This document shows positions 764 to 58,821 of a DNA stretch of 64,000 nucleotides, in pieces. Under the pieces are notes generated by a model that saw only the letters and a program-made list of their open reading frames with translations, made no database searches and was not told the origin of the DNA. Position 1 is the stretch's first letter. Every line of letters begins with the position of its first letter. Position numbers and translations under genes: made by a program. This stretch comes from Bacteroidales bacterium. Lineage in GTDB: Bacteria; Bacteroidota; Bacteroidia; Bacteroidales; P3. The DNA lies in assembly GCA_045640985.1 (NCBI GenBank), contig JAZUFZ010000017.1, forward strand, positions 18,125 to 82,124, written 5' to 3'.

Positions 764-816
764 AACTAACTGATATATATTATTTTCTATTAATTTTCAC
801 ATTTTTTTCAGCACTC

Positions 817-824
817 CAAAGATA
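817..824 (-). promoter_or_regulatory. candidate Bacteroidota -7 box (TATCTTTG on the minus strand) for ackA
   Basis: CAAAGATA on the plus strand is TATCTTTG on the minus strand and matches TAnnTTTG. It lies ~54 nt upstream of the ackA ATG. Confidence 0.4.
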
Positions 825-1007
825 CACAAACTTTCCGAACCTGCAAAATAAAGTTATCAACAGTCCCTGTTTCTAACCCCATTTCCGTCCTGGAAATTGC
901 CCGGGCAGAGCTCCCGGAAAGCCCTTCCGGAAATCCCTGCCCGACCCTCGGAAACCGGACTATGGAAGGCCTCTTTTTTCTGCCTTGTAAATCAGGTGTT
1001 TCCTGCA

Positions 1008-1126
1008 GGTAACTCCCTTCTATCTTCTTTTTATCTCCATATTATCTTTTTTTTATCTTTTGTTCTAAGAATTGGAGATAAAACGAAGATAAAAAAAAGA
1101 TAAAAAGAAGATAGAAGGGAGTTACC
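1008..1126. repeat. 119-bp palindromic intergenic element, copy 1 (GGTAACTCCC...GGGAGTTACC)
   Basis: 29-bp perfect terminal inverted repeats. Each arm holds four TATCT (left) or AGATA (right) subunits spaced exactly 11 bp apart (1021/1032/1043/1054 and 1076/1087/1098/1109). A second copy is at 29923..30041. Confidence 0.9.
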
Positions 1127-1326
1127 CGCTGCACGGGAGAGAGAAAAACGGCCGGAAATGCCGGGAAATGAATTTCCTTCCAAAGAGGCATGGCAACCGG
1201 AAAAAGAGGCAGGAAAAGTCCAAAACGAAAGCAGAAAGAACTCCAGGTAAAAGCCTCCACGGTTCCCGTCAGAATTTTCAATAAAAATAAATTCGCGCCA
1301 GGAGCGCATAATTCAAAAAAAAAGTG

Positions 1327-1334
1327 TATCTTTG
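1327..1334 (+). promoter_or_regulatory. candidate -7 box TATCTTTG for the OmpA-family gene
   Basis: Exact TAnnTTTG match 113 nt upstream of the ATG at 1447. Confidence 0.35.
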
Positions 1335-1446
1335 CAAAAATCCTTCAGGGACTTCCAAGTCCCCTGAAAGGGTATAACACTATGGAAATCACCGCTGAAA
1401 CAGACACCAGCTGTTTTGGCGTAAAGAATTATAAAAGCATGTTTGC

Positions 1447-3042: not shown

Positions 3043-4044
3043 ATGAAATACAGAACCATCCCTATCTTTATCCCCGAAATGGCATGCCCGTGCCGGTGCG
3101 TGTATTGCAACCAGTTTGTGATATCGGGTCAGCAGCAGATGCCTTCCGATGCAGAAATTCTTTCCACCATCGAGAGCCATCTCGCCACTATATGGGGAAA
3201 CGGCGTGGATTCCGGAGAGCAGCGGGTAGAGATAGGATTCTTCGGAGGCACATTCACCGGACTGCCCAAAGAGGAGCAACTCCGGCTGCTGCGACTGGTC
3301 AGCCCCTATCTGGAAACGGGAAAGATAAAGGAAATCCGCTGTTCCACCCGCCCCGACCGCATAGAGGAACCGTGGCTCAGGGAACTGAAAAAATACGGAA
3401 TGCAGACCATAGAACTGGGCGTACAGTCGATGAACGATGAAGTACTGAAAGCCTCCGGCAGAGGCTATTCCCCCGCCACAGTGGAAGCGGCCGCCTCCGC
3501 CATCAGGAATGCCGGAATGAAACTGGGAATGCAGATGATGATAGGACTGCCCGGAGACACTCCCCAACGCAGTCTGGAGACGGCCCAGAGAATTGTAGCC
3601 CTCGGAGCTGACAACACCCGAATATACCCGACCCTCGTGATAGAACATACGCTGCTGGCAGAACGCTGGCGGAGAGGAACCTACAAGGCACTCAGCATAG
3701 AAGAAGCCGTAGCATGGACCAAGCCTGTGCTGAAACTTATGGAGGAAAGCGGACTGGAGGTTCTGCGGGTAGGACTGCATCCGACGGAAGGCTTCATCAA
3801 CGGAACCGACTATCTGGCAGGGCCGTTCCATGTGGCATTCAAACTTCAGGTACAGAGCGGGATATGGGGCGACCAGTTCGAGACACTTCCCGGCGGAGAG
3901 CGTGTCACCATCAGGGTAGCCCCACAGATGCTGAACGCCGCAGCCGGCTATCAGGGCATCAACCGCAGGAAACTGGAACAGCGATACCGCAACGTACAGT
4001 TCCGCCCCGACGAAAAACTGAAATTATACGAATATGAAATATAA
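3043..4044 (+). CDS. radical SAM protein (ELP3/coproporphyrinogen-oxidase-like fold)
   Basis: CPCRCVYCNQ (CxxxCxxC-type cluster motif) near the N-terminus. The ATG directly follows the upstream stop. Confidence 0.75.
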   Translation: MKYRTIPIFIPEMACPCRCVYCNQFVISGQQQMPSDAEILSTIESHLATIWGNGVDSGEQRVEIGFFGGTFTGLPKEEQLRLLRLVSPYLETGKIKEIRCSTRPDRIEEPWLRELKKYGMQTIELGVQSMNDEVLKASGRGYSPATVEAAASAIRNAGMKLGMQMMIGLPGDTPQRSLETAQRIVALGADNTRIYPTLVIEHTLLAERWRRGTYKALSIEEAVAWTKPVLKLMEESGLEVLRVGLHPTEGFINGTDYLAGPFHVAFKLQVQSGIWGDQFETLPGGERVTIRVAPQMLNAAAGYQGINRRKLEQRYRNVQFRPDEKLKLYEYEI

Positions 4045-5553: not shown

Positions 5554-5608
5554 CCCGTCCTCCACGCCCGAAAACTGGTGGTAGAATAAGGAAAATAAAC
5601 TGAAACAA
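5554..5608 (+). repeat. 55-bp direct repeat, copy 1 (identical to 7971..8025)
   Basis: CCCGTCCTCCACGCCCGAAAACTGGTGGTAGAATAAGGAAAATAAACTGAAACAA read at both places; 55/55 identical by eye. Confidence 0.95.
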
Positions 5609-6968: not shown

Positions 6969-8006
6969 ATGTACAAGATCATCATCGTCATGACAATGTT
7001 GCTAACAGGTATCGGGAATGCATATTCTCAGAATAATGAAGTGTTGGACACCCTCTGGGAGAAGCCTGACCGATATTTCGCGAACTATTACCCACCGACA
7101 GACTGGATGGAAAACCCCAGTGTTGGATATTCACGTTCATTAAGGTTTGATTATGGAGAACTTCACGTAAGACGTGCTGATAGCAGTTTCACCTCTACTC
7201 ATCGTCTCTTGCACCAACTACATACCGACCATCCGTTGAAAATAGTGGGAATCGCATACTATGCCAGAAAAGACATTCCATACTATAAAGATTCCGTCAT
7301 CCTGTATGATATGGATTCGATGGGGAACATGGTACAATTATGGGCAAAAGGATGTGAATCGAAGGAGGAAGACAACCAACTGCTTTTGGATATTCCATAC
7401 GAGTCAGATGAAGAGGACCAATGCGGACATTCACCACGGCTGCCGCACAGGCTTATACTGATATCTGAATCATATCTGGATGAACCCATAATTGTGGAAG
7501 ACAGTTTCTATGTCGGATTTACCGACTGGTATCATGACGGAGGGTGGGGGAATTATTCTTGTTTGATTGTTCAGTGGTGGCGACCTTTAATGGATGTACC
7601 ATGGAACCGATGTGGATATCCGGTAATTCCAAAGATGTATTGGGAATCATCTACAGACACATGGCACCGGACAGATGTAGATAATTTTTCATATATGATA
7701 TGGCCTATCATTGATGTGGAATATGGGCAGGATACGATAGACACCGTTTCAGTTGGCAGGGTGGAAACGGTAGAGGAAATAAAGGTAAGTCCGAACCCCG
7801 CACGGGAACGAGTATCGGTGGAGGCTTCGCGGGTGATAGACCATCTTTGGGTAAAGAACACCCAGGGGGTTGAGATATACAACAACACCCATTGTACGAA
7901 CCGCGTGGAGCTGAACGTGAACTGGTGGTCCAAGGGAGTATATATCATCTATATGCAACTGGACGGAGACCCCGTCCTCCACGCCCGAAAACTGGTGGTA
8001 GAATAA
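6969..8006 (+). CDS. hypothetical T9SS cargo protein (AT-rich cassette gene 2)
   Basis: Signal peptide MYKIIIVMTMLLTGIGNAYSQ. C-terminus KVSPNPARERVSVEAS...KGVYIIYMQLDGDPVLHARKLVVE has the type-A T9SS sorting-domain pattern. Confidence 0.8.
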   Translation: MYKIIIVMTMLLTGIGNAYSQNNEVLDTLWEKPDRYFANYYPPTDWMENPSVGYSRSLRFDYGELHVRRADSSFTSTHRLLHQLHTDHPLKIVGIAYYARKDIPYYKDSVILYDMDSMGNMVQLWAKGCESKEEDNQLLLDIPYESDEEDQCGHSPRLPHRLILISESYLDEPIIVEDSFYVGFTDWYHDGGWGNYSCLIVQWWRPLMDVPWNRCGYPVIPKMYWESSTDTWHRTDVDNFSYMIWPIIDVEYGQDTIDTVSVGRVETVEEIKVSPNPARERVSVEASRVIDHLWVKNTQGVEIYNNTHCTNRVELNVNWWSKGVYIIYMQLDGDPVLHARKLVVE

Positions 8007-8025
8007 GGAAAATAAACTGAAACAA
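7971..8025 (+). repeat. 55-bp direct repeat, copy 2 (covers the last 11 codons, the stop and the 3' flank of the 6969..8006 gene)
   Basis: Identical to 5554..5608. Confidence 0.95.
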
Positions 8026-20281: not shown

Positions 20282-20329
20282 ATCAAAATGGTGTTGTTAA
20301 ATAGTCGATGTTACTTCCTTAATGAAATG

Positions 20330-20337
20330 CAAAGGTA
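20330..20337 (-). promoter_or_regulatory. candidate -7 box (TACCTTTG on the minus strand) for the small proteolipid gene
   Basis: CAAAGGTA on the plus strand, ~50 nt upstream of the ATG at 20281. Confidence 0.3.
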
Positions 20338-20497
20338 CGAAGATTTTTTGATATGGGGAAATTTTTTCCTGTTTGACAAAATAACAGAGATGTCGGGAGT
20401 GGTTTCCCTCCCGGGACGGGTGGTCCACGGGGACGCTGGGAAGGGAAAATCCGGGGGCGGATTTCCTCCTGCTCAAGGTCGGGGTAAAAAGGGGTTT

Positions 20498-20573
20498 TCT
20501 GCGCCTTTTCTCCGCTCTTTCTCCGCTCTTTCTCCGCTTTTTCTCCGCTTTTAGAGCGTAGAAAAGGCGCAGA
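20498..20573. repeat. 76-bp palindrome-capped tandem array: TCTGCGCCTTTTC ... GAAAAGGCGCAGA enclosing 4 x 11-bp CTCCGCT units
   Basis: CTCCGCT starts at 20510, 20521, 20532 and 20543, an exact 11-bp period. 13-bp inverted repeats sit at both ends. Confidence 0.85.
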
Positions 20574-20731
20574 TATCCCGGAGAAAATACGGCAGAAACC
20601 CAGCGTTACCAGAGAGACATAAGGGAGATATGTCGGGCCAAGCCGGGCATCGGACATCCGCTTTTCTTTCGCCTGAGCCTTCCTCTGGATGAAAAAATGG
20701 GAAAAAATTTTGCAAATTGAAGATTATTTTG

Positions 20732-20739
20732 TAATTTTG
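20732..20739 (+). promoter_or_regulatory. candidate -7 box TAATTTTG for sbcDC
   Basis: TAnnTTTG match 57 nt upstream of the ATG at 20796. Confidence 0.4.
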
Positions 20740-20795
20740 CATAATCTTTATCGTTATAATATGACGAAACAAAGTCTTTACAAAAAGAACAGTAT

Positions 20796-22055
20796 ATGAA
20801 AATCATCGCTACTTCCGACTGGCATCTGGGCAATATCTTCCACGGGAACGACCGTCTGCCTGAACATATTCATTTCCTCGACTGGCTCAATACTCAAATC
20901 AGGGAGCATCAGCCGGATGCACTTTTGGTGGCTGGAGATGTGTTTGATAACGGCAATCCTTCTGCTGCCGCCCAATCGGCCTATTACGCCTTTCTGGCTG
21001 AGGCTACTGCCCGCTGCCCTCATATAAGAATCGTCATCACGGCAGGAAATCACGATTCCGCCTCCCGGCTGGAGGCCCCGAGGGAACTGCTTTCCCGCCA
21101 CAACGTGGAAATCAGAGGCAGTATCCACCGCGAATGGGTGTCGGACGAGACGGACGGCCATTGGGAAATCGACTACGACGACCTGATGATTCCCGTGAAG
21201 GACCAGGAGGGAAATGAGATCGTGGTGCTTGCCGTGCCGTTTCTCCGGAGCGACATCGTGAGGGACGCGAACTACTCGCAAGGGGTGAACCGTATTCTGA
21301 AAGAGCTTACGGAAAGGGCTCGGGGAAAATTTCCAGGACTTCCGCTCGTGATGATGGCACATATATACGCCAAAGGAGCAGAAATAGCCCATCAGGAGGC
21401 GAGCGAGAAAATCGCCATAGGAGGACAGGAAGAGGTTAATATGGAGGGATGGGCGGACCATCCGGAATACCTCACCTGCGGACATATACATAAACGCCAG
21501 CATGTGTGGAACACCGACTGGGCCCGCTATACGGGGAGTGTCCTCCCGATGTCGTTTGCGGAAAAGGACTATCGTCATGGGGTAGATCTTATCACCTTTG
21601 AAGGGAACCGTCCGAGGGTGGAACTTCTGGAATACCAGCCTCAGCACCGGCTGCGTGTCTTCCCCGAAAACGATGAGGACTATACCATCAACAAACTGAA
21701 GAAACTCCTTGACGGGGAACTTGCCGACCGGGTGGAAGGCAGACTGTCCGGGAATTTTGAATATCTGGTACTCCGGGTACAGCAGGACCGTATAAACAAC
21801 GACGCGGTGAAAGACCTTGAGAGTTTTATAGAGACAAAAGATGCGGTGCTATGCAAGATGCAGAAGATCAGTACTCAGATTGACATACACACGCTCACGG
21901 ACCACCAGCAGCTGAGAAGTGTTGACGATATTCTCAACCGGGACCCGATGGAGGCGCTGAAAGAATGTTTCCTTATAAGGCAACAGAAGGAACTCAACCC
22001 TAACCAGCTCCAGATTCTGGAAGAAATAATAAATAACGTGAAGGTAAACTCTTGA
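20796..22055 (+). CDS. sbcD: exonuclease SbcCD, nuclease subunit D (Mre11-like)
   Basis: MKIIATSDWHLGN, GDVFD and GNHDS calcineurin-like phosphoesterase motifs. Confidence 0.88.
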   Translation: MKIIATSDWHLGNIFHGNDRLPEHIHFLDWLNTQIREHQPDALLVAGDVFDNGNPSAAAQSAYYAFLAEATARCPHIRIVITAGNHDSASRLEAPRELLSRHNVEIRGSIHREWVSDETDGHWEIDYDDLMIPVKDQEGNEIVVLAVPFLRSDIVRDANYSQGVNRILKELTERARGKFPGLPLVMMAHIYAKGAEIAHQEASEKIAIGGQEEVNMEGWADHPEYLTCGHIHKRQHVWNTDWARYTGSVLPMSFAEKDYRHGVDLITFEGNRPRVELLEYQPQHRLRVFPENDEDYTINKLKKLLDGELADRVEGRLSGNFEYLVLRVQQDRINNDAVKDLESFIETKDAVLCKMQKISTQIDIHTLTDHQQLRSVDDILNRDPMEALKECFLIRQQKELNPNQLQILEEIINNVKVNS

Positions 22056-22068
22056 AAAAAACGCAATC

Positions 22069-25000
22069 ATGAAACTTCTCAAACTCGAAATACAGAACTT
22101 GGCTTCACTTGACCGTCCTGACGGCGAAGTGATAGATTTTGAATCAGGCGCCTTAGGTGAGAGCACCATCTTCAGCATTGTGGGACCCACGGGAAGCGGA
22201 AAATCCACTATCCTTGACGCTATCTGTCTGGCGTTATACAACCGTGCCCCACGCTATCCGAAAGAGAAAGGCGAGCGAAACCAGAAGATAGAGATCTACG
22301 GCGACATGGAAGAAACGGAGAAAAACCGACTTGCCCCTACCGACGGACGCAATATCCTGACCAAAGGCAAGAAGGAAGGCTATTCAAAAGTTACCTTCCT
22401 GGCCAACAACGGGGATATATACCGAGCAGAGTGGTATGTAAAATTCATGAGAACCAATTATCAGAATGCTATCACCTCTCTCTATAAACTGACCCCGGAC
22501 GGAGACCGCTGTATAGAATCCGAGGAAGACTGGAACCAGCTTCAGCAGATTATCGGACTGGATTATGATCAGTTTCTGCGGACCGTACTGATAGCCCAGG
22601 GCGCTTTTGCGGACTTTCTCAATGCCAGCGTGGAAGACCGATACGAACTGCTTGAAAAACTGGTGGGATGCAAAGAAACCTATACTGCAATTGCAAAGGA
22701 AATCAATGCCCGGAAAGAGAAAGCCCAGCAGGCATATAACGAACTGGCCGCCACTACAAAAGCATATAAGGAAAAAATGCTGGAAACGCAGGAGGCGGAA
22801 GCGCTCCTTCAGGAAATCCAGCAACTGCAAGCCTCTGAAAAGAAGTTTTCTGAAAACCTTGAACAAATCAGAAACAGCACAAAATGGTATCAGGATGAAG
22901 AACTGATGCTGAAAGATATTCAAGGGAAAGAAGCCGTGTATGACGCTGCAAAAAAGAACTTGACAAGCATTGAGGATAAAGTCAGAAAGCTGGAACTCTA
23001 CGATGCCATTCTGCCAGCCATAACGATACGACACGACTGGCTGCGTATGGAGGGGGAAAACACCCGAATCCAGAACGCCATCACAGAGACCCGAAAAACT
23101 ATGGACCTCCAGAATAAAGACTACATAACTAAAGGCGAGGAATTAAATATCCTTCAGAAACAGCTTTCCGAAATTCTTAACATGACGGCGGCTCTGACTC
23201 CCCATATCAGGAAAGCCCGGGAACTGAAAGGGCTCCTTGTCCCCGCCCGAGAAAAATTGAATGAAAAAACTATAGCCAAGGAAACCGCCTTCACAGCAAA
23301 GAACGTGGCAGAAAAAGCCGTGGAGGACAACGCGGTAAACATACAGAAAGCGGACGAAGAACAGAAATCGGCAACCCGGAAACTGACTGAATACACACAA
23401 AAAATAGCGGAGAAAAGAATCCTGCTGAACCAAACTGAAAAAAAAGCAGCGGAAGACCTCGCAAAAGAAAACCAGAAGGCAGAAGGGCTAAACTTTGAAC
23501 TTCTACAGCAACAGAAAGAAACTGCCACCCGAAATCTCACGGACTTGAATACCGCTATGGAAACCGTCAGGAGCAGGGATGCCAAGCAAAAGGAACTATT
23601 GGAGAAGCAGCAAGAGGCAGCCGTGCTTAAAGAGCGAAACCATCAACTGCAGGAACTGATTTCAAAACTCACCATCAAGGACCTGAATACCGAGGTGGAA
23701 GAACTGAAAACCCTCTATACATTGACCTCCAGCGAACAATGGGGCCAACACCGGAACCTGCTGAAAGAGGGGGAACCCTGTCCTTTGTGCGGAGGCGTAC
23801 ACCATCCATACTCAGATAACCCAGAACTTTTTAACAAAGTTTCCTCCGAACTGATGTCCCTTCTGCAGAAAAAGAAATCCGAACTGGAAGCACAACGGAA
23901 ACAAGAACAGACCCATACCGGAGAACTGCAGGAAAACCTTGGAAAAGCGGCCGGATTGGAACATTTAATCAGTAATCTGAATGCCGATATCAAGAATTAT
24001 AATGACATTATGGAGCGCATTCACGGAAAGCATCCGGAATGGCCTGAGGAATACACCCAGATAGAGGCTCTGAAACCTTCCTGCGAAGATGCAGAAACTG
24101 CCGCCCGGAAAGCTTTGACGGACTATACCGCCTTGATGGAAAACATTAAAAAACTGACCGAAATCCGAAATACCGCAACCAAAGCATTAACAGAATTTGA
24201 AACCAATGCAAGCAAGGCTTTGGAACAAGCCCAGCAGGCGGTTGCTGCCACCAACGAAAAACTGACTCACTACAAAACCCTGAGCAGTTCCTTCGCCCAA
24301 CAGTTGCACGAGAAACAGTTGTACTATACCCAATCGGAACTTGAATATACGGCTGCTAAAGATGCAGTAGAAAACCTGAACAAACAATATCAGGAAGAAC
24401 TGCAGGGAAAAGACCCAGACACGGAAGAATTTCGACTTACAGAAGAAAAGCAAAAAGTTGATACTGCCATAAGTAAACAATCCGAAATTCTCGAAACACT
24501 CAGAAACGATCTGAGCAATCTGGCAGGTTTCCTTACAAGTCAGGAGAAGATACAACAGGATAACAATGCTGCTATCCAGGAGAAAAAACTACTGTTGGAA
24601 GGGTGGATTAAACAATATAATGAAAGTCATGACGGGACGAACATTTCGGCGGATACCGTAATAGAGCTGATGGAATCAACAGAAGATTGGAATGCTATTC
24701 GTCAGCTGAGAGACGAGAGGTCCAGTTCGCTCACTTCGGCACTTACCCTTCTGAATGCCGCTAAAGAAACAGTCCAAACACATCAGCTTTCCAAGCCCGA
24801 GTTCTCCCGTGAGGAACTTCTGGTACAACAGAATCTGCTGCAGGAACAATTACAGCAAAATCACGATAGTCTCATCGTCAGAAACACAAGATACCAGAAC
24901 CATTTAGAAGCCTCCAAGGTAATTGGTGAACAAGCCGAACAACTGGCTCAGGCAGAACAGGAAAACGATGACCTGTCGGCTATCACTACCGCAATAGGAA

Positions 25001-25473
25001 GCGATGGAAAGACCCTGAGAAAAATTGCCCAATGTTATACGCTGCAATTTCTTATTGAACATGCAAATGCAGAAATCCGTAAGTTCAACAGCCGGTATGA
25101 ACTGATGCCCGTAAAGAATTCTCTGGGCATCCGTGTGATTGACCATGACCGGGCTGACGATATCCGTGATACTACTTCCCTTTCAGGCGGAGAAACATTT
25201 ATCGTGAGTCTCGGACTGGCTTTAGGACTTTCATCGCTCTCCTCCCGCAACATCTCTTTCGGAAATCTCTTTATTGATGAGGGATTCGGTACACTAGACC
25301 CAGAGATGCTGGGTATCGTGATTGATGCGCTTGCAATGTTGCAGAGTTCTCAAAACAAAAAGGTGGGGGTAATTTCTCATACCGACATTATGAGTGAACG
25401 TATCACAACCCAAATCAGGATTATCAAAAACGGAAACTCGGGCAGCAGCCATATTGAGGTTTACCCTAGTTGA
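22069..25473 (+). CDS. sbcC: exonuclease SbcCD, ATPase subunit C (Rad50-like SMC protein)
   Basis: N-terminal Walker A GPTGSGKST, ~800 aa of coiled coil with a central zinc hook CPLCGG, and C-terminal LSGGE.F...L and DEGFGTLD motifs. Confidence 0.88.
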   Translation: MKLLKLEIQNLASLDRPDGEVIDFESGALGESTIFSIVGPTGSGKSTILDAICLALYNRAPRYPKEKGERNQKIEIYGDMEETEKNRLAPTDGRNILTKGKKEGYSKVTFLANNGDIYRAEWYVKFMRTNYQNAITSLYKLTPDGDRCIESEEDWNQLQQIIGLDYDQFLRTVLIAQGAFADFLNASVEDRYELLEKLVGCKETYTAIAKEINARKEKAQQAYNELAATTKAYKEKMLETQEAEALLQEIQQLQASEKKFSENLEQIRNSTKWYQDEELMLKDIQGKEAVYDAAKKNLTSIEDKVRKLELYDAILPAITIRHDWLRMEGENTRIQNAITETRKTMDLQNKDYITKGEELNILQKQLSEILNMTAALTPHIRKARELKGLLVPAREKLNEKTIAKETAFTAKNVAEKAVEDNAVNIQKADEEQKSATRKLTEYTQKIAEKRILLNQTEKKAAEDLAKENQKAEGLNFELLQQQKETATRNLTDLNTAMETVRSRDAKQKELLEKQQEAAVLKERNHQLQELISKLTIKDLNTEVEELKTLYTLTSSEQWGQHRNLLKEGEPCPLCGGVHHPYSDNPELFNKVSSELMSLLQKKKSELEAQRKQEQTHTGELQENLGKAAGLEHLISNLNADIKNYNDIMERIHGKHPEWPEEYTQIEALKPSCEDAETAARKALTDYTALMENIKKLTEIRNTATKALTEFETNASKALEQAQQAVAATNEKLTHYKTLSSSFAQQLHEKQLYYTQSELEYTAAKDAVENLNKQYQEELQGKDPDTEEFRLTEEKQKVDTAISKQSEILETLRNDLSNLAGFLTSQEKIQQDNNAAIQEKKLLLEGWIKQYNESHDGTNISADTVIELMESTEDWNAIRQLRDERSSSLTSALTLLNAAKETVQTHQLSKPEFSREELLVQQNLLQEQLQQNHDSLIVRNTRYQNHLEASKVIGEQAEQLAQAEQENDDLSAITTAIGSDGKTLRKIAQCYTLQFLIEHANAEIRKFNSRYELMPVKNSLGIRVIDHDRADDIRDTTSLSGGETFIVSLGLALGLSSLSSRNISFGNLFIDEGFGTLDPEMLGIVIDALAMLQSSQNKKVGVISHTDIMSERITTQIRIIKNGNSGSSHIEVYPS

Positions 25474-27856: not shown

Positions 27857-28483
27857 TTAGAAATGCTTTTCGCTCTCGGTATGGATAATACCTGTTTTAC
27901 GCACACGCTGTACGGGAGAAGGATTCTTTGGACGGGAAATTCGTGGCGGACGTTTCTTGAGACGTGGAATATATTCAACATCACCAGACTCGTTCACCTC
28001 AAGTCCATAGACTTTCTCGGTATCAAGATTGACTTTCACACGCCAGTAGTGGCCACAACCACCTCGTGTGAGAATAATATCCTCACCCAATTTTGAAGTT
28101 ACCGAAGCATCCCAGATGAAGTTGCACCATACAATCTTGTAACCGTGGATGTCAGTGAAACCCACATACTGACGTTCATACTTGCGCATGTGTTCATCTA
28201 TGACGGGACATTTGCCACCTTGGTTCTCATGTTCACGATTCACGTAGGCTATACGTTTCTTGATGAGTGCCTCAGCTTTGGCTATATCTGCATCAGTAGG
28301 GGTATAACGTCCGTCCTGACTCTCGATGGTAAAATCCACTTCCCAATTCTTATGGTACGAAAAGCCATGATAAAAGTTGCCTTCAACTTCTTCAGCCTTA
28401 AAAGTTTCTTCCGGTACAATACGCTCTTGAGCCACACCTGAAAAGGCAGCCAGAAGCATTATGGAGAGGAGTATTTTCTTCAT
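27857..28483 (-). CDS. hypothetical secreted protein (208 aa from the internal ATG)
   Basis: MKKILLSIMLLAAFSGVAQ signal peptide begins at the ATG at 28483. A -7-like box 25 nt upstream supports this start over the longer 28558 ORF. Confidence 0.7.
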   Translation of the reverse strand: MKKILLSIMLLAAFSGVAQERIVPEETFKAEEVEGNFYHGFSYHKNWEVDFTIESQDGRYTPTDADIAKAEALIKKRIAYVNREHENQGGKCPVIDEHMRKYERQYVGFTDIHGYKIVWCNFIWDASVTSKLGEDIILTRGGCGHYWRVKVNLDTEKVYGLEVNESGDVEYIPRLKKRPPRISRPKNPSPVQRVRKTGIIHTESEKHF

Positions 28484-28507
28484 TTCTATTAGTATCAAAA
28501 ACCGATG

Positions 28508-28515
28508 CAAAAGTA
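28508..28515 (-). promoter_or_regulatory. candidate -7 box (TACTTTTG on the minus strand)
   Basis: CAAAAGTA on the plus strand, 25 nt upstream of the ATG at 28483. Confidence 0.35.
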
Positions 28516-28577
28516 CTAAAAATTTAATACATGGACAAATTTTTTTTATTTTTTTCACATATATGAAAAAAAATTCC

Positions 28578-28585
28578 TATATTTG
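28578..28585 (+). promoter_or_regulatory. candidate -7 box TATATTTG for the CoA-transferase operon
   Basis: TAnnTTTG match 100 nt upstream of the ATG at 28686. Confidence 0.35.
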
Positions 28586-28685
28586 CAGACTGATAACCAA
28601 TGCGTAGAATGCCCCTTAGGGAGGTGGAAAATATTTAATACACAACGCATTCGGACGAATTGAATAACAAAAAAAATTAAACAAT

Positions 28686-29347: not shown

Positions 29348-29740
29348 ATGGCAGTAAAATCAATGCTCCGCGTTCGTATGAGCGCAAAAGACGCCCACTA
29401 TGGCGGAAACCTCGTTGATGGTGCACACATGCTTCACCTCTTTGGTGATGTAGCAACCGAACTTCTTATCATCCAGGACGGCGATGAAGGCCTGTTCTGC
29501 GCTTACGATATGGTAGAATTCAAAGCTCCTGTATATGCAGGCGACTATATTGAGGCATACGGCGAAATCACCCATGTAGGCAATACCAGCCGCAAGATGA
29601 CCTTCGAGGCATATAAGGTTATCAAGACCCGCCCCGACATCAGCGCCAGTGCAGCCGACGTACTTGAAGAAAAGATTCTGGTATGCCGCGCCAGCGGAAC
29701 CTGTGTAACCCCTAAGGATTGCCAGCGCAACAACAAATAA
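29348..29740 (+). CDS. hotdog-fold protein resembling 3-aminobutyryl-CoA ammonia-lyase (Kal) of the lysine fermentation pathway
   Basis: 130 aa. [35 protein letters not shown]...[23 protein letters not shown] resembles Kal-type hotdog proteins from memory. Not verified by search. Confidence 0.5.
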
Positions 29741-29776
29741 TCCGCAGAAATTATTTTCTTTTTCATAGTGAAGATA

Positions 29777-29803
29777 GAAGCCTCGCAAGGGCTTCTTTCT
29801 TCT
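29777..29803 (+). terminator. candidate rho-independent terminator after the Kal-like gene
   Basis: GAAGCC-TCGCAAG-GGCTTC stem-loop followed by TTTCTTCTTATT. Confidence 0.5.
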
Positions 29804-29922
29804 TATTATACCCTCTGGCAGTATTAATCTATAGTTTTATTCTGGAAATCCTTGGTTCTCAGTCTGCGCGCGGTCGCTCCGTTGTGCTTGGCGCAGAACC
29901 ACCACCGGGGACTCCGCACCGC

Positions 29923-30041
29923 GGTAACTCCCTTCTATCTTCTTTTTATCTCCATATTAACTTCTTTTTATCTCCTTTCCTTAGAATAAGAGATAGAAAA
30001 AAGATAAACTGGAGATAAAAAGAAGATAGAAGGGAGTTACC
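29923..30041. repeat. 119-bp palindromic intergenic element, copy 2
   Basis: Perfect 31-bp terminal inverted repeats, GGTAACTCCCTTCTATCTTCTTTTTATCTCC and its reverse complement. The first 38 nt are identical to copy 1 (1008..). It lies between convergent genes. Confidence 0.9.
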
Positions 30042-30131
30042 ACTTACAAATGACTATATTACAGCAGAAAAAAATCTGCTTCTTTACAAGAGCAATTAAC
30101 CGATTAATTCATTTCGACGGGTATTTATCCC

Positions 30132-39148: not shown

Positions 39149-39251
39149 ACGAGGAAAATTGATTTTTTTATTGTGTCCGACATCTCAAATGCAGCATCTT
39201 TCTATTGTGAGCCAGCCGTTTAACTGGTAATGGATATATATATCTTCTATG

Positions 39252-39259
39252 CAAAGATA
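39252..39259 (-). promoter_or_regulatory. candidate -7 box (TATCTTTG on the minus strand) for the SDR gene
   Basis: CAAAGATA on the plus strand, ~104 nt upstream of the ATG at 39148. Confidence 0.3.
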
Positions 39260-39363
39260 CAAAAGTCGAGCGAAATGGCAAAAATTTATTGATTTTTCAA
39301 AAAAATGCGTAGATCACAGTCATGATTGTCATACGTTCCCGCTCTGCCGCGTGACACCTCCCC

Positions 39364-39458
39364 GGTAAGGCCGTAGCTGCGGTGTGGTTCTGGTGTCCCG
39401 CAGAGGGACGGAAGAGGGAGATACCAGAGAGATACCAGGGAGATACCCCAGAGTTACC
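39364..39458. repeat. degenerate member of the GGTAAC...GAGTTACC palindrome family
   Basis: The right arm has GAGATA/GAGTTA at 39418, 39429, 39440 and 39451 (11-bp period) and ends in GAGTTACC. The left arm GGTAAGG...GGTGTGGTTCTGGTGTCCC is only loosely complementary. Confidence 0.6.
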
Positions 39459-39550
39459 AGCCGGACAGAGACGATATCAACATCTACGCAAGATATGATA
39501 AACCGGTTTTTTACGGCATTTTCGCTATTCTATTGATTCATAGCAAGAAT

Positions 39551-39614
39551 CATCCGACGTTCATCCGACAGAAACCGACATCAATGTCGGTTCATGTCGG
39601 ATGAATGTCGGATG
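39551..39614. repeat. 64-bp imperfect palindrome built from 3 x 11-bp CATCCGAC-type units per arm
   Basis: Left arm CATCCGACGTTCATCCGACAGAAACCGACAT. The reverse complement of the right arm is CATCCGACATTCATCCGACATGAACCGACAT. Units start at 39551, 39562 and 39573. 2-nt loop. Confidence 0.85.
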
Positions 39615-39805
39615 CTATCCTCAGAGAACCAGCAACATACGCAAAAAGACATCAAAAATCGAGATTTCACTCTTTCAATGCACAACGATACCTATGCTGA
39701 ACCATGATGACCCTGACTTTTTCCATTCCGACCTGAATAGATCTCTTTGACACTCCATTGAAAAAGTTCTTTGGCGGGTTCTTTGATGAAATCTTTCTCC
39801 GAGAA

Positions 39806-39840
39806 AACAAAAAAAGGGCGCCTCACGAGGAGGCACCCTT
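39806..39840 (-). terminator. rho-independent terminator of the giant gene
   Basis: On the minus strand: GGGTGCCTC-CTCGT-GAGGCGCCC followed by a T7 run, ~45 nt after the stop at 39882. Confidence 0.6.
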
Positions 39841-39881
39841 TTGATTAGAGTGTTATCTAATCAGTCAGTAGGAGGTTCGGA

Positions 39882-42800
39882 TTAGCGAACAACCACTACA
39901 CGACGAGCAGGCAAGTTGCCGACCTTCACCATGTAAACGCCAGAGGTTGGCATAGTGAATTCGTTAACTTCGCTGTAGTTTTCAGCTACGTGATTTACGC
40001 AGCGTCCAACAGCATCGTAGATGTAGATTGACTGGTTAGCGGCACCTTTGACAACGATGTTGCCGTTGGTGCTGTAGATGTTCACGTCGAGAGCATCAAC
40101 ATCGTCAATACCCTGAACAGCTCTGAACTCAGCAACATACTCGGCATCGCCGGTAACGGTGATGGTGCGGGTAGCGTTGGTGTTGCCATCGCTCCACTGA
40201 ACGAATTCATAGCCCTGTCTTGCAGTAGCGGTGATAGTTGCAGTGGTGTTGTAAGCGTAAGAGCCGGAACCGGTAACGGTACCCATAGTAGCATCGCAGC
40301 TTACGGTGATCATGTAGTTCATGGCCACGAAGTTAGCGGTGAGGGTAAGGTTGCTGGTTACAACGATGTCGCGTACAGCGTTGGTGTTACCGTCGCTCCA
40401 GCTGTCGAACTCATAGTGTTCGTTAGCTACTGCAGCGATGTGAGCGGTTGTACCTTCGAGGTAGCTGCCGCCACCGGTTACAGTACCCATAACTGCATCA
40501 TTAACCTGGAGGGTAATGGTGTAGGTCTGGAGTGTACGCTGGAAGTTAGCTCTGTATTCTGCATCATCATTAACGGTAATGGTACGTGGGTTCTCGGTTA
40601 CTGCATCGCCCCAGTTGGTGAAGGTTACGCTTGCATCAGCAGGAATAGCGGTGAGAACAACCTGCTGGCCGAAGAGATACTGGCCAGCACCGGTAACGGT
40701 ACCGAGTTCAGGATCATTAACCGAAGTAGTGATGGTGTAGAGGTTACGTGCATACTGAGCGGAGAATGCTGTATCGGAGAGGATCACAACACGGCGAACT
40801 GCATTGGTGTCACCATCGTTCCACTGAGTGAAGTGATATCCGTGGTTAGCACTTGCGGTGATAGTCACGGTGTCTTCGAATGCGAAGGTGCCGGCACCTT
40901 CTACAGTACCCATGTAGGTAGAGTCAACATTCAAGGTCAGAGTGTAGTTGTTACGTGCGAACTGAGCTACGAAGTTTCTATCGGAGGATACGAGAACGTT
41001 ACGTGGGTTTTCAGTATTGTTGTCGCTCCACTGAACGAAGTGGTAACCATAGTTTGGAGTAGCCTCGATTACAGCGGTGGTGCCATAGTCGTAGCTGCCC
41101 GTACCAGTGGTGGTACCTTCAATAGCGTTGCAGGTAACATTGATGTCGAACTGATCAACTGCGAAGATTGCGGTTACAGCAGTATCGCTGTGTACAAGGA
41201 TCTGGAGTGGGTTAACGGTTTCGCCGTTGCTCCATTCTACAAACTTGTAACCGTATGCTGCCTGAGCATTGATGGTTGCATACAAGCCATAGATAAACTG
41301 GTTGCCAACGCCACCGGTAACGGTAACAGCACCCATTTCTGCATTGTTAGCAGTTGCAGTTACAGTATGAGTATCGATTGCAAAGTTTGCAGTCAGTGTA
41401 GCATCGCCAAGAACCTGATAGTTGTATGGGTTGTCGGTTGCACCATCGCTCCAGTTGGTGAAGTGGTAGTGTGCATCGGCGGTAGCGCTGAGAGTTGCGA
41501 AGGACTCGTACTCATATTCGCCGGAACCGGTAGCAGTACCATTTTCAGCAGCATTTACAACTACTGCGAAGGTCATCTTGGTGAAGAGTGCAGTGAGGTT
41601 CATATTTCCGGTTACTTCAACAACGCGAACGCTGTCCATGTTACCGTCTGCCCAACCTGCGAATACATATCCGTAGTTAGGAGTTACATGGATGGTATCG
41701 TATTCACCATAGAGGATCATACCGTTGTTGGTCTGGGAAACAGTACCATTTTCTGCAGTTACATATACACGGTAGGTGTGACCACCGAACATTGCGGTAT
41801 AGGTAGCGTTGCCCTCTACCACGATGGTGCGGATAGCGTTGGTGTCACCGTCATTCCAGTACCAGAAGGAGTTCTGCTGTGCATCGAGAGGAGTAGCGCT
41901 GATGGTTACTTCTTCACCGTATGCAAAACGTCCGGTTCCTTCTACAGTACCGAGGTCGTTGCCAGCGAGTACAGTGATGTCGAAGGAGTCAGCCACGAAG
42001 GTTGCAGTCAGGACGGTGTCGCCCATAACGGTAACGGTACGTGGGTTGGCTACGTCGCCATCGCTCCAGCCGTTGAAGATGTAACCGAACTTAGGTTCAA
42101 CAGTAAGAACTGCTGTCTCGCCGTAAGCGGTCTGAGCGTCTTCAATGGTGCAGGTACCCATGTTGGTATCGATTGCTACAGATACAGTGTACATGTTAGG
42201 ATCGAACAGAGCCACATAGCTGTTAGGACCATTTACGGTTACAGTGCGGGTAGCATCGGTTACGCCGTCAGTCCAGCCTACGAAGTGATATCCGTAGTTA
42301 GCAACAGCGGTAAGAACTGCCTCACTCATGTAGAGGTAAGAACCAGCACCTTCTACAGTACCACGTTCTGCATATTCTGCAGCAGCGTTGATAGTGTATT
42401 CACGAGGACCGAAGGTTGCTACGAGGTTCAGGTCTTCAGTTACGATAGTCTGATAGATGTTATTGGTGTTACCATCGTTCCAGCTTACGAACTCATAACC
42501 GAAGTTAGCAGTTGCAGCCAGAGTGAGGTAAGAACCGTAGGTGTAACGGCCACCTGCGTTGAGACCGTTGATGGTACCGAGGGCAGGATCGTTTACAGAT
42601 GCGGTTACAGTCAAGGTATCAACTGCGAAGGTTGCAGTCAGCGTGATATCTTCGTTCACGGTAAGAACGCGTGGGTTGTCGGTGTTGCCGTCACTCCAGT
42701 TGAAGAAGTGGTAGCCAGCCTTGGTGCAGGTAGCGCTGATGGTAGCAGTACGTCCACTTACGTAGCGTCCTGCGCCTTCTACAGTACCCATCTTGGCGTC

Positions 42801-45800
42801 AGCCAGCAAGGTCACGTTGTAAGATACGCTGTCGAACTGTGCAGTGTAGGTAGCGTCGCCACCAACGGTGATAACACGTGGGTTAGCCACAACGCCGTCG
42901 TTCCACTGAACGAATTCGTAGCCTTCATTTGCAGTTGCTTCAAGAGTATCTTTTGCACTGAGTACAAATTCACCGGAACCGGTTACGGTACCACGTTCTG
43001 CAACGTTGGCAACAGCGGTGATAGTGAATGTTGTATTAGCCTCTTCGAAGATTGCGGTGTATTCTGCGTCACCGGTGATGGTGAGTACGCGTGGGTTGTC
43101 GGTGTTACCGTCGCTCCAGCGTGCGAATACGATGTTGTCTTCGAGGTTGGTATCGATAGCTTCGATATTAGTCGTACGGTTATACAGGTAGCGGCCTGCA
43201 CCGGTTACAGTACCGTAAGTAGAGTTAACTGCTACGGTGAAGGTATCAGGTGCGAAGTATGCCATGTAGAAGTTACGTGCGCTGGTGAACTCGAAGGTAT
43301 ATGGGTTCTCTCTGCTGTTGCCGCTCCAGTAATTGAAGTGGTAACCGAATGCAGGAATTGCCTCGATAGTAACTTCGGTGCCATATACAAACTGGCCAGC
43401 ACCGGTAACAGTACCCTGAGCTACGTTGTTGGAAACAACATTCAAGGTGTGGGTATCAGGCTGGAAGATAGCGGTCAGCAAGGTATCGCTGGTTACACGC
43501 AGACGGCGTGCAGCCTCGGTATTGTTGTCGCTCCAGTTTACAAAGCGGAAGTTAGTATTTGGTATAGCTTCGATGTTAGCGTAGCTGTTTACAGCGTAGG
43601 TGCCAGCACCGGTAACAGTACCCATAGTTGCGTCGTTGGTGTTCAAGGTAACGGTGTACTGAGCATCAACTGGCTCGAACATTGCAATGTAGGTAGCAGG
43701 ACCTTCAACCTGAACAGTACGTGGGTTGTCGGTAATGCTGTCTTCCCACATCGTGAATGCGAAGCCGGCACGTGGGTTAGCTGTCATTTCGGCGTTGCTC
43801 AGGTATGCGTAGTTGCCGCTTCCGGTAACGGTACCCATACTGTTGTTAGCGCTGAGAACAGTGATTGCGAACTGTGCAGCTGAGAATTCTGCTACGAGTG
43901 TAGTATCGTCGGTTACAGTTACGCGGCGGGATGCGGTAGTTACACCGTCATTCCAACGTACGAACTGGTAGCCGTAGTTAGCGGTTGCTCTTACGGTAGT
44001 GGTACCGAGGTAAGCAACGTCAGCATCTTCAGATACTGTACCCATTGCAAGGTCAGCGGACTGAACAGTTACGTGGAAGGTATCCTTAACATAGATTGCA
44101 GTCAGGTTGATGTTTTCTCTCAACTGGCCGCTGCGTACCATCGTGGTCACGCTATCACTCCACATCTGGAATACATAGCCGTGGTTTGCGGTGGTGCTGA
44201 TAGTGTAAGGAGAATTGTAGTTCAAGGTATCTGCGCCTTCTACAATACCTGCACCGGCAGGAGTTACGTGCAGTGCAATGATATATGCGTTAGGTGCGAA
44301 GGTTGCAGTGAGATTTACATCGCTTTCAACGATCATCACGCGTGCGGTATCGGTGTTGCCGTCGCTCCAGGACTCGAAGTGGTTGCCGAGAGTTGCATTA
44401 GCGTTCAGCACGAGTTCGGTACCGTGTTCAACGGTGGTGGTCAGACCCTCAACGCCTTCGATAGAGATGCTGCCCATAGCTGCGAAGCCTTGAGATGCAA
44501 ATGCGATGGAAACGTTGTAGGTGTTGATTTCGAAGTTAGCGGTGTAGTCGGCATTCTGGGTTGCAACAATCTGACGGGTCAGGTTGGTGTCACCGTCTGC
44601 CCATCCCGTGAAGTGGTAACCGTATGCAGGAACTGCTGTCAGAGTAACAGTGTCATTTGCATCGTAGATACCGCTACCGAGTGCTGTACCCATATTGTCG
44701 TTGTTTGCAAGTGCATTTACAGTGTAGCGTGCTTCAGTAGCGAAGTTAGCTACGAGTGTATCGTCATAGAGAACGGTGTAGCTGCGTTCAGCATTGATTT
44801 CACCATCGCTCCAGCCGTTGAAGTAGAAGCCTGCTGCAGGAACTGCGGTGAGGGTGATTTCGCTGTTGAATGGGTAGCTGCCTGTACCGGTCACCATACC
44901 AGCGTTAGCAGGATCAACCACTGCTGCGATAGCGAAGGTGTCAGGTACATAGTAAGCCGTAATATTAATGTTGTCGTAAACGCGGAAGCCGATAGCCTGT
45001 TCGGTTTCGCCGTTGCTCCAGTTCTGGAACTGATAGCCGTAGTAGTTAGGTGCGTAGAGAACTGCGGAATCACCGTAGCCGTACATACCAGTACCGCGGA
45101 TTTCGATGTCTTCGAATTCAGTTTCAGCAGCAACTTCGAAGCTGTCCTTAGCAAAGATTGCAGTCAGAACAGTATTCTCGACTACTTCGATGGTGCGTAC
45201 GGCCTCTTCGTTACCGTCGCTCCATGCTACGAAGTAAGCGTGTTCGTTAGCGATAGCCTCAATGTCCACCATTGCGCCATAACCAACTTCGTCGAAGGAT
45301 GCAGTAGCGGTACCCATTACGGTATCGTTAGAGCGTACGAGTACACTGTACAGGTCTGCCTCGAAGTAAGCGGTCAGGTCGTAATCCTGGTTCATCAGGA
45401 GACTGCGGCTTGCTGATGGATTTTCATCACTCCATTGTACGAAGTGGTTACCAACAGTAGGAGTAGCTGTGATGTAAGCGTAAGAGTCTTCAACATATTC
45501 GCCTTCGCCTTCAACGGTACCGAGTTCTTCGTCGTTGGAAGCAAGGGTTACGTTGTACTGCTGAGGAACATACAGACGGATGTCATCGATGCAGCAGCTG
45601 TATTGGTTGCTGTAGTACCATCTGAATGCTATGCGGTCAGCATCTTCCGGAACTTCGCTCAGGTCGATGGTAACTTCGCTCATGGAACCATTGTGGCTGG
45701 ATACCTGCTGAATCTGAGTGAAGGTGTTGAAGTTGTTGTCGCCTTCCTTGATATAACCAACGGTCAGCGTACCATAGGAAGCGCTTTCCGTCTGTCTCCA

Positions 45801-58163: not shown

Positions 58164-58242
58164 AACTTTTTGGATTTAATTAATTAATTGAGTGAATTTT
58201 ATATATTTCAAGGTTTATTTGCATAATACACATATTGAACTG

Positions 58243-58250
58243 CAAAATTA
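58243..58250 (-). promoter_or_regulatory. candidate -7 box (TAATTTTG on the minus strand) for the giant gene
   Basis: CAAAATTA on the plus strand, ~80 nt upstream of the ATG at 58163, inside a ~280-bp very AT-rich tract. Confidence 0.3.
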
Positions 58251-58481
58251 TATACTTTTCAACAAATACGCAAATTTTTTTGTGACTTTTTTTTCATAAA
58301 TTTTTCATTATATTAAATATCAACACTTTATGCTGTTGAAAATTTTTATAAACAGCCTGTTGATAACCCTGCACGATTGTTCATAAGATTTTCCGCCCGT
58401 TTCCTCCCACGCTATATATATAATTTAATGAAACCATAAATAAAAAGTCCCCCGGAACCAACCTCAAAACCGGACAGAAAT

Positions 58482-58560
58482 TCCCCGAAATCGCTCCCGA
58501 AACTGGAGGAAAATCCCCCGAAAACGCTCCCGAAACCGGGAAGGAGTCCCCGAAAAGTGC
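58482..58560. repeat. 33-bp (3 x 11) tandem repeat, ~2.4 copies, of CCCCGAAA/CTCCCGAAA words
   Basis: TTCCCCGAAATCGCTCCCGAAACTGGAGGAAAA / TCCCCCGAAAACGCTCCCGAAACCGGGAAGGAG / TCCCCGAAAAGTGC. Confidence 0.75.
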
Positions 58561-58607
58561 TTATTTTCCCCTCCGGACAGCCCAGAATCCCCTCAAATCA
58601 GGCCCCG

Positions 58608-58724
58608 GGTAACTCCCATATATCTCCCATATATCTCCCATGTAGGTAGCATAAAACACGAATTTTCCGCCGTCCCGGACACAGCCCTACCAGGGAGATA
58701 CCAGAGAGAAACCCGAGAGATACC
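58608..58724. repeat. degenerate 117-bp member of the GGTAACTCCC...palindrome family
   Basis: The left arm GGTAACTCCC(ATATATCTCCC)x2 has TAACT/TATCT at 58610, 58621 and 58632. The right arm has GAGATA/GAGAAA/GAGATA at 58695, 58706 and 58717. Both arms are 11-bp phased. Confidence 0.7.
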
Positions 58725-58735
58725 TCAAAAAAACA

Positions 58736-58815
58736 CCCCGAAAAACCGCCCGAAAACCATCCGAAAACCGCTCGGAAAGAACCCGAAAACCGCCCGAATA
58801 GAACCCGGAAAAACG
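58736..58815. repeat. seven-unit 11-bp phased CCGAAAA-type array
   Basis: The CG of C(C)GAAAA / CGGAAA occurs at 58739, 58751, 58762, 58773, 58784, 58795 and 58806. Spacings are 12, 11, 11, 11, 11, 11. Confidence 0.8.
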
Positions 58816-58821
58816 TCCTTG

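Follow-up and report, generated by a model that had tools for sequence, protein, structure and literature searches.

Correia/NEMIS elements of Neisseria have a 26-bp terminal inverted repeat, a TA duplication and an IHF site, and the plasmid partition protein ParR is a ribbon-helix-helix protein. In the R1 parC site of ParR, 11-bp repeats are grouped by five into two sets within ~159 bp; the site is strongly curved, and its repeats are phased and each bind one dimer (PMC2241845). Sites of the ArcA/PhoB type (OmpR/PhoB family) are composed of 2-5 direct repeats with a centre spacing of 11 bp (PMC3798270). As for dispersed repeats, BrickBuilt of Porphyromonas gingivalis consists of 23-nt units in one direct array with a leader and a tail, and its unit number varies (PMC4596501); repetitive extragenic palindromic (REP) sequences are GC-rich palindromes of 20-40 bp with a GTAG/CGTC head and are linked to the RAYT transposase (PMC3733652); PINSR is a 188-bp repeat of Prevotella intermedia/nigrescens, which lacks terminal inverted repeats and is without a reported 11-bp substructure (PMC4755523). 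A 10-11-bp periodicity of A-tracts, enriched in intergenic DNA and linked to curvature, is found in prokaryotes (PMC3940949). Here, we describe a 119-bp palindromic element present as copies A and B in a 64,000-nt stretch of DNA (the window) from a Bacteroidales bacterium (assembly GCA_045640985.1, contig JAZUFZ010000017.1, positions 18,125-82,124 of the forward strand). With good confidence, the two 119-mers are the most regular and best-conserved members of a lineage-restricted family of dispersed non-coding repeats built of 11-bp units. More tentatively, this dispersed repeat may act as a dyad-symmetric, curved, multi-site platform for protein binding. The copy and array counts given for this genome cover the 64-kb window only.

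Both copies are exactly 119 bp long, at the coordinates given in the initial annotation of the sequence, and the common 37-nt start noted there was right, as was the length of the perfect terminal repeats in copy A; for copy B, 32 pairs were measured instead of 31. The copies are near-perfect, AT-rich palindromes with the head GGTAAC and the termini GGTAACTCC, and the similarity between A and B ends sharply at GGTAAC/GTTACC. Their level of identity is 86.6% in the direct and 88.2% in the reverse-complement orientation. The TATCT/AGATA cores do recur at a spacing of exactly 11 bp in both copies; however, each arm contains five units and not four, since the end unit GGTAACTCCCT, a TAACT variant of the TATCT unit, precedes four TATCT-type units (the fourth unit of the copy B left arm is also TAACT). 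One 11-bp lattice, 1012+11k in A and 29927+11k in B, carries all ten core centres and the dyad centre, so the location of the cores on the same helix face, proposed earlier, extends across the entire element. The TATCT-N6-TATCT pattern occurs 14 times in the window, with 0.10 occurrences expected, and 10 of the 14 are inside the two 119-mers; the 18-nt terminus has four exact occurrences, where 0.02 are expected even with up to 3 mismatches allowed.

A comparison of strains, with one alternative haplotype per copy (contigs L003-L006 for A and L013 for B), indicated that the arms are conserved. Copy B is identical to its counterpart at 119/119 positions, and its flanks have 9 substitutions. Copy A has two changes only, at positions 1067 and 1069, both in the centre. 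Substitutions abut the ends of the elements (positions 1127, 1128 and 30042), and the spacer DNA around the copies has 32 substitutions in 836 positions. No substitutions were found in the 220 arm positions, whereas 6.6-8.7 are expected from composition-matched flank rates (P=0.0002-0.0014). The 16 differences between A and B are confined to positions 38-90 (P=5.5e-7); the interior of the 119-mers is ~30% diverged between the copies, and the termini are identical. When the inner units of the four arms are compared by column, 14 of the 15 columns of the 5-nt core do not vary versus 6 of 18 other columns (p=0.0009), a statistic that overstates independence, since the four arms share descent. This invariance of the cores strengthens the earlier suggestion that the helical phasing marks an array of binding sites. 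No compensatory base changes were found between A and B; thus, it is the sequence at phased positions that is kept, and not base pairing.

The same unit is found outside the 119-mers. All six GGTAACTC words of the window head arrays of TAWCT units; they are located in the four arms of A and B, in the solo array at 39415-39458 and in the left arm of a third, degenerate element at 58608-58724. In total, the window contains two full copies, one degenerate copy and two half arrays. The arrays of the third element are mirror-symmetric about position 58666, its centre is not palindromic, its arms are 2 bp off a common lattice, and nhmmer gives a weak match to it (E=0.8). The inner unit of the solo half-element is GGTAACTCCCT in another strain (L272). 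In the sister species, four GGTAACTCCGC units lie between the epimerase and DUF4837 genes (contig L273), and another contig (L275) begins within an arm composed of GGTAACTTCGC, TATATCTTCGT, TCTATCTTCGT and further units beside a DUF4476 gene. When 38 in-phase units from nine arrays of the two species are aligned, the consensus at positions 3-9 is T (37/38), A (37/38), W, C (38/38), T (38/38), Y, Y, and positions 1, 2, 10 and 11 carry almost no information. The unit may be described as a TAWCT core, usually followed by two pyrimidines, with a variable spacer, five such units forming each inverted array. That the sister species uses this unit grammar at different loci supports the reading of the repeat as a protein-binding platform.

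According to a wedge model, the two 119-mers are the most curved 119-bp segments of the window, with an end-to-end/contour ratio of 0.72 versus a window mean of 0.97 (standard deviation 0.026); these values, from a trajectory with Bolshoy parameters, are relative only. For the arrays of GC-rich TAWCTCC units (39415-39458 and 58608-58641), no curvature is predicted, and hence the predicted curvature belongs to the T/A-rich spacers of the 119-mers and not to the core. Most likely, the 119-mer acts as intrinsically curved double-stranded DNA. A sequence-specific protein would bind it cooperatively and from one side of the helix, each turn accommodating one subunit or dimer, and the T/A-rich spacers would add phased bending that favours wrapping. 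Invariant cores on a one-turn lattice, variable spacers, the dyad, the predicted bending and the lack of covariation together form the pattern of a cooperative multi-site platform. It is from this pattern in the sequence that we infer a protein reading the cores; the putative protein might come from the host, as an architectural or regulatory factor, or might be the transposase of a parent element that has since been lost. After the 119-mers, the short promoter spacer upstream of a CoA-transferase gene (28461-28600) is among the most curved predicted segments.

The initial annotation treated the palindrome pair alone; both copies are real, but they are an instance of an 11-bp phenomenon that runs through the window and had been missed. 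Tandem Repeats Finder revealed a dozen arrays with a period of 11 bp, in addition to periods of 22 and 33 bp, with at least four unrelated unit sequences, and only in five long spacers (regions 1-5 in Table 1). Autocorrelation of these spacers has maxima at lags 11, 22 and 33, also after removal of the 119-mers, whereas coding DNA exhibits period 3 only. In a lag scan with 44-bp segments and self-match of at least 62%, all high-scoring segments at lag 11 (215/215) fall in the five spacers, and the other lags from 5 to 18 give at most 9. The design of a palindrome of 11-bp units recurs in two other sequence families, at 20492-20579 and 39551-39614, the latter having the architecture of the 119-mers in a different sequence. 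The A-tracts of 58467-58814 keep one register over ~25 periods, and region 5 has a spectral peak at 11.1 bp with a power of 41-60 versus a shuffle 99th percentile of ~17. In the window, the TTTCTCCGCTC array (20495-20552) is five units long, and eight other strain contigs have four units, which is an exact 11-bp indel; thus, unit slippage alters the arrays, and they cannot be coding. Region 4 measures 733 bp versus 120 bp in the sister species with the same gene order, which indicates that this lineage has gained periodic DNA. Four of the five long spacers lie where the gene order differs from that of the available relatives.

Table 1. Elements, arrays and associated features of the window, in window coordinates.
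Feature	Position	Strand	Description
Copy A, palindromic element	1008-1126	.	119 bp; 29 perfect terminal pairs
Copy A, left arm	1008-1062		five 11-bp units GGTAACTCCCT, TCTATCTTCTT, TTTATCTCCAT, ATTATCTTTTT, TTTATCTTTTG
Copy A, centre	1063-1071		9-bp mini-palindrome TTCTAAGAA
Copy A, right arm	1072-1126		inverted array
Copy B, palindromic element	29923-30041	.	119 bp; 32 perfect terminal pairs
Copy B, centre	29978-29986		TCCTTAGAA
Degenerate third element	58608-58724	.	117 bp; left array GGTAACTCCCA, TATATCTCCCA, TATATCTCCCA
Third element, right inverted array	58696, 58707, 58718		cores AGATA/AGAAA/AGATA
Solo half-element	39415-39458	minus	GGTAACTCTGG, GGTATCTCCCT, GGTATCTCTCT, GGTATCTCCCT
Degenerate TATCT-type array	20600-20632	minus	three units: TATCTCCCT, TATGTCTCTCT, GGTAACGCTGG
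Five long spacers with 11-bp periodicity (regions 1-5)	764-1446, 20282-20795, 29741-30131, 39149-39881, 58164-58818
11-bp array of unrelated sequence with inverted partial copy	20492-20579	.	TTTCTCCGCTC, 5 units; outer part pairs with inverted copy
64-bp palindrome	39551-39614	.	3+3 units of ~11 bp, core CCGAC/GTCGG
CCGRAAA(C)-core arrays	58467-58814	plus	11-bp (and 33-bp) period, both sides of third element
Long divergent intergenic region with copy A	764-1446	.	683 bp
Putative Bacteroidetes -7 boxes TATCTTTG	817-824; 1327-1334	minus (ackA); plus (OmpA gene)

Copy A is located between the divergent ackA (start ~763, minus strand) and PD40/OmpA-family (1447, plus strand) genes, as gene positions confirm. 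Its centre (1067) lies within ~9 bp of the midpoint between the two putative -7 boxes, which we take to be such from the Bacteroidetes consensus TAnnTTTG, and its flanks hold periodic DNA of the CCGGAAA type. Copy B is located in a spacer of 391 bp towards which two genes converge with their 3' ends: one is of the 4HBT type (3-aminobutyryl-CoA ammonia lyase in the sources), and the other is Mfa2-like, with copy B 90 bp downstream of its stop codon; the 4HBT-type gene has its own canonical terminator (29776-29796). The neighbours of the copies are chromosomal housekeeping genes. Domain scans, including Pfam marks on the gene calls, found no transposase, recombinase or DNA-binding regulator domains in the window, in agreement with the initial annotation as regards the transposase; there are no par genes in the window, and no tRNAs were found.

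The host belongs to a sparsely sampled Bacteroidales lineage of metagenome-assembled genomes. The best homologues of the window proteins, with 97-100% identity, belong to the same species (ENA, Logan and NCBI contigs), and the next-best ones, with 65-77% identity, belong to sister or closely related species (runs SRR183983xx). Neither copy has a target-site duplication (the flanks are ...CCTGCA / CGCTGCA... for A and ...CACCGC / ACTTAC... for B), and neither an empty site nor an insertion polymorphism was found among the same-species contigs, all of which contain both copies. The relatives with an identical 4HBT protein are without copy B and have other genes at that place, and the OmpA locus of the sister species has a different upstream gene and a 52-96-bp spacer without the 119-mer. 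The loci of the relatives that do not have the copies are rearranged, so there is no clean empty site. Conservation at orthologous sites in all relatives, which the initial annotation had set against mobility for the case that only these two copies exist, is thus observed in every strain contig examined; in the sister species, a truncated arm and a solo array are found at other loci.

A search for the exact 18-nt terminus in the GTDB representatives revealed no Bacteroidales match; two 18-19-mer matches (Photobacterium and Ascidiimonas) have no further similarity and were attributed to chance. A degenerate pattern of the terminus had 0 matches in the JGI metagenomes. The pattern of four TATCT at 11-bp spacing gave more than 120 matches each in metagenome and viral contigs; all are unrelated tandem repeats, none is palindromic and none is headed by GGTAAC. 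The terminus consensus of the window and the sister species matched one viral contig, inside a 681-aa open reading frame (ORF) without arrays, and this match was also considered accidental. BLAST of copy A revealed three borderline A-rich matches within genes of plasmids, which were rejected, and no match in phages. No further copies were detected on all fetched loci with an nhmmer profile of the arm. In Rfam, there were 0 matches at the gathering threshold; generic plant and animal long-hairpin microRNA models scored 18-65 bits, their thresholds being 1.5 to several times higher. In the Rfam, phage, plasmid and literature comparisons, no match was found to a described repeat family; such a match would, according to the initial annotation, have refuted its reading.

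Several points weigh against the protein-binding platform. No gene for a candidate binding protein was found in the window, and the contexts of the arrays are inconsistent (divergent promoters, convergent 3' ends and spacers of tandem genes), which is odd for an operator. One protein cannot have all the 11-bp arrays of unrelated sequence (CCGAAAAC, TTTCTCCGCTC and the CCGAC cores) as its sites, and their common period suggests a more general structural or mutational cause. In addition, the conservation test has a single alternative haplotype per copy, the arms are related by descent, and the curvature values are relative only. A somewhat unlikely alternative is a MITE (miniature inverted-repeat transposable element), in which the arms would be fused transposon ends and the 11-bp units would be transposase sites, as in the ends of Mu, Tn7 and Tn402-type elements, with the transposase encoded elsewhere in the genome. 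The fit to a MITE or Correia-like element, noticed in the initial annotation, stands insofar as the copies are discrete, small, non-coding units with sharp ends and perfect terminal inverted repeats of 29-32 bp (119 bp, no conserved ORFs). Identical termini around a diverged interior, two copies in unrelated contexts, the half-elements and the degenerate copy, the same grammar at different loci of the sister species, and assemblies that break inside arrays, as they would in repeats, are all consistent with it, and BrickBuilt is a Bacteroidales MITE with internal tandem repeats (PMC4596501). However, the fit fails in that neither copy has a target-site duplication, there is no transposase in the 64 kb, both copies are present in every strain contig with no empty site seen, and near-identical copies elsewhere were not found in the collections searched, the exact 18-nt terminus having no Bacteroidales match among the GTDB representatives. 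The copies are 13% diverged with no sign of recent activity, and a MITE leaves the 11-bp period of the unrelated arrays unexplained. These arrays are best explained by a structural by-product without a dedicated protein, in which slippage makes the 11-bp units, template switching makes the palindromes, and only whole-turn indels and phased A/T tracts are tolerated or favoured, with curved or writhed DNA as the outcome; as an account of the whole, we consider it unlikely. It agrees with the confinement of 11-bp self-similarity to the five long spacers, at least four unrelated unit sequences, the exact one-unit polymorphism between strains, the long-range phase coherence of region 5 and the length of region 4 relative to the sister species, and 10-11-bp A-tract periodicity associated with curvature and supercoiling is a known property of genomes (PMC3940949). 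At the same time, slippage should homogenise whole units, yet the cores are kept and the spacers vary inside an array, from one array to another and from species to species. Moreover, the arms of the 119-mers are far more conserved between strains than the adjacent spacer, and the model predicts no curvature for the GC-rich TAWCTCC arrays.

It is distinctly unlikely that the period reflects an 11-bp "ruler", a protein or filament that would recognise one core in every 11 bp, perhaps by forming a dyad-symmetric wrapping complex, and would select and position several families of phased arrays, the 119-mers among them. A topological role, either as a cruciform that forms under negative supercoiling and buffers divergent promoters or as a gyrase wrapping site like E. 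coli BIME-2 (bacterial interspersed mosaic element), is very unlikely, although folding confirms that the element can form very stable hairpins both as DNA and as RNA. The single-stranded DNA fold has an energy of -36 to -42 kcal/mol (z = -10 to -12), and the RNA fold has an energy of -62 to -74 kcal/mol (z about -13; -10 to -14 for DNA and RNA together). Both copies occupy places where supercoils would accumulate according to the twin-domain model, A midway between divergent promoters and B between convergent genes, and the gyrase motif of E. coli is ~130 bp long and symmetric, with two 10.75-bp-periodic arms, BIME-2 being preferred sites (PMC6379681). On the other hand, that motif has a non-periodic centre of 36 bp and degenerate arms read indirectly, whereas here the centre is 9 bp and the cores are sharply conserved; frequent extrusion is made less likely by the mismatches in the interior and by SbcCD (20796-25473), and solo non-palindromic arrays of the same units exist. 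The least likely rival, in our opinion a most improbable one, is an RNA role of the long hairpin as a terminator, a stabiliser of mRNA 3' ends or a small-RNA precursor. It would accord with the very stable RNA fold and with the position of copy B behind the Mfa2-like gene. However, copy A is upstream of both neighbouring promoters and so is probably untranscribed, no compensatory substitutions and no Rfam family at the gathering score were found, and solo arrays cannot fold. The view that the element is not simply a terminator holds: A is between divergent genes, no U-tract (T-run in the DNA) follows the stem of B, and the upstream gene has its own terminator, which is the only hairpin found by a scan for intrinsic terminators (GC-rich stem and T-run). 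DnaA-box, IHF-site and H-DNA readings were rejected on inspection by eye, which gave partial matches only, and the arms are inverted, not mirror, repeats.

Some observations concern the surroundings of the elements. In the CCGGAAA-type DNA at 888-914, 11 substitutions are concentrated in 27 bp relative to L003-L006, the surrounding spacer being ~2-3% different; this tract looks replaced or converted rather than point-mutated. Putative -7 boxes (TATCTTTG) were also noted at 39252-39259 (minus strand) and ~32085 (minus strand). The array core TAWCTYY coincides with the first 7 nt of the putative local -7 box TATCTTTG; a reading of the arrays as promoters or sigma decoys was set aside, since they have neither the final G nor a -33 TTTG. 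The 130-aa 4HBT-type protein (29348-29740) is 100% identical in amino acids across relatives, whereas its gene is only 84-87% identical in DNA (loci L012-L021). The DNA just downstream of this gene (the 4HBT-OmpH junction) is a variable hot spot, where the genes differ in each relative. The SbcD and SbcC genes (20796-25473) adjoin region 2. SbcCD is reported to cleave hairpin stems in ~10-bp steps (PMC4787754), and it is a possible source of a mutational ruler of ~10-11 bp in palindromes.

The arrays also affect gene calling and assembly. ORFs overlap them at 1031-1309 (minus strand), 20288-20554 (plus strand) and 29719-30018 (plus strand), and the 11-bp indel between strains rules out a coding reading of such ORFs. 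A 107-aa "gene" called on region 2 in other strains (L262-L269, locus positions 3671-3994) is spurious. Two Logan contigs stop inside the TTTCTCCGCTC array, and short-read contigs begin or end inside 11-bp arrays (L272:1-40, L275:1-43 and the ends of L270 and L271), which means that the repeats fragment assemblies of this lineage. In practice, the arrays should therefore be expected to break short-read assemblies and to attract spurious gene calls.

Two further loci of the window can be noted. At 39882-58163 (minus strand), a 6093-aa protein is encoded that contains fn3 domains, dozens of ~70-aa Flg_new_2 (InlB B-repeat-like) units and a DUF6383 tail; it has a 6097-aa orthologue in the sister species (L273), and in the window long periodic spacers are present on both of its flanks. 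A perfect 35-bp direct repeat (5571-5605 and 7988-8022) surrounds a 2.4-kb block of two genes, located upstream of an EPSP-synthase-family gene and encoding a 443-aa protein without a Pfam match and a 345-aa protein with a type IX secretion system (T9SS) sorting tail; the gene order of strain contig L003 differs at this block.

If the cores are protein sites, the family would be the equivalent, dispersed over a chromosome, of the centromere-like or iteron arrays of plasmids and would open a way into the architecture of the nucleoid or of promoters in a Bacteroidales lineage of the gut or rumen that is uncultured. If the 11-bp "ruler" existed, the long spacers would be built nucleoprotein structures, a sequence-programmed bacterial chromatin, and neither junk nor ordinary operators. 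The period is found only in the long spacers between genes, and strains differ in it by whole units. Its strictness in arrays of unrelated sequence offers a clean natural case for comparing helical phasing with a mutational ruler in non-coding DNA.

When the 119-mers are compared with phased protein-binding sites, among which parC and the ArcA/PhoB-type sites come nearest in design, they share with parC the 5+5 units, the exact 11-bp period and the predicted curvature. However, the parC repeats are direct, their sets are split by a 39-bp promoter, and parC lies beside parM/parR on a plasmid, whereas the sets of the 119-mer are inverted around a 9-bp centre, chromosomal and present in at least two copies, with no par genes nearby and no sequence similarity. 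With the ArcA/PhoB-type sites, they share the 11-bp spacing of direct repeats and a short conserved core with a variable spacer; unlike them, the 119-mers are palindromic units of 10 sites, and copy B is not near a promoter, while the ArcA/PhoB-type sites are in regulated promoters. Thus, the 119-mer belongs to neither system. As for gyrase sites, the 119-mer has symmetry and periodic arms, but its centre is 9 bp, whereas the E. coli motif, the one used in this comparison, has a 36-bp cleavage core.

Like the bacterial MITEs and interspersed palindromes Correia/NEMIS, ERIC, RUP and BrickBuilt, the 119-mers are small, non-coding, intergenic, multi-copy and hairpin-capable and have terminal inverted repeats; there is no sequence similarity with any of them. 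They differ from Correia/NEMIS in their termini, in the absence of TA flanks and in the Bacteroidales host. BrickBuilt is the nearest Bacteroidales precedent for a repeat element with a variable tandem array, although the 119-mers have 11-bp units in two inverted arrays and neither leader nor tail. Like REP/BIME, which are sometimes bound by gyrase and for which a nucleoid role has been proposed (PMC6379681, PMC3733652), they are dispersed intergenic palindromes, but they are 119 bp long, AT-rich, headed by GGTAAC and internally periodic. PINSR is likewise a lineage-specific intergenic repeat family of Bacteroidales, unrelated in sequence. Finally, general A-tract periodicity is a weak statistical bias, whereas the DNA described here contains explicit tandem arrays, conserved cores and discrete repeated elements.

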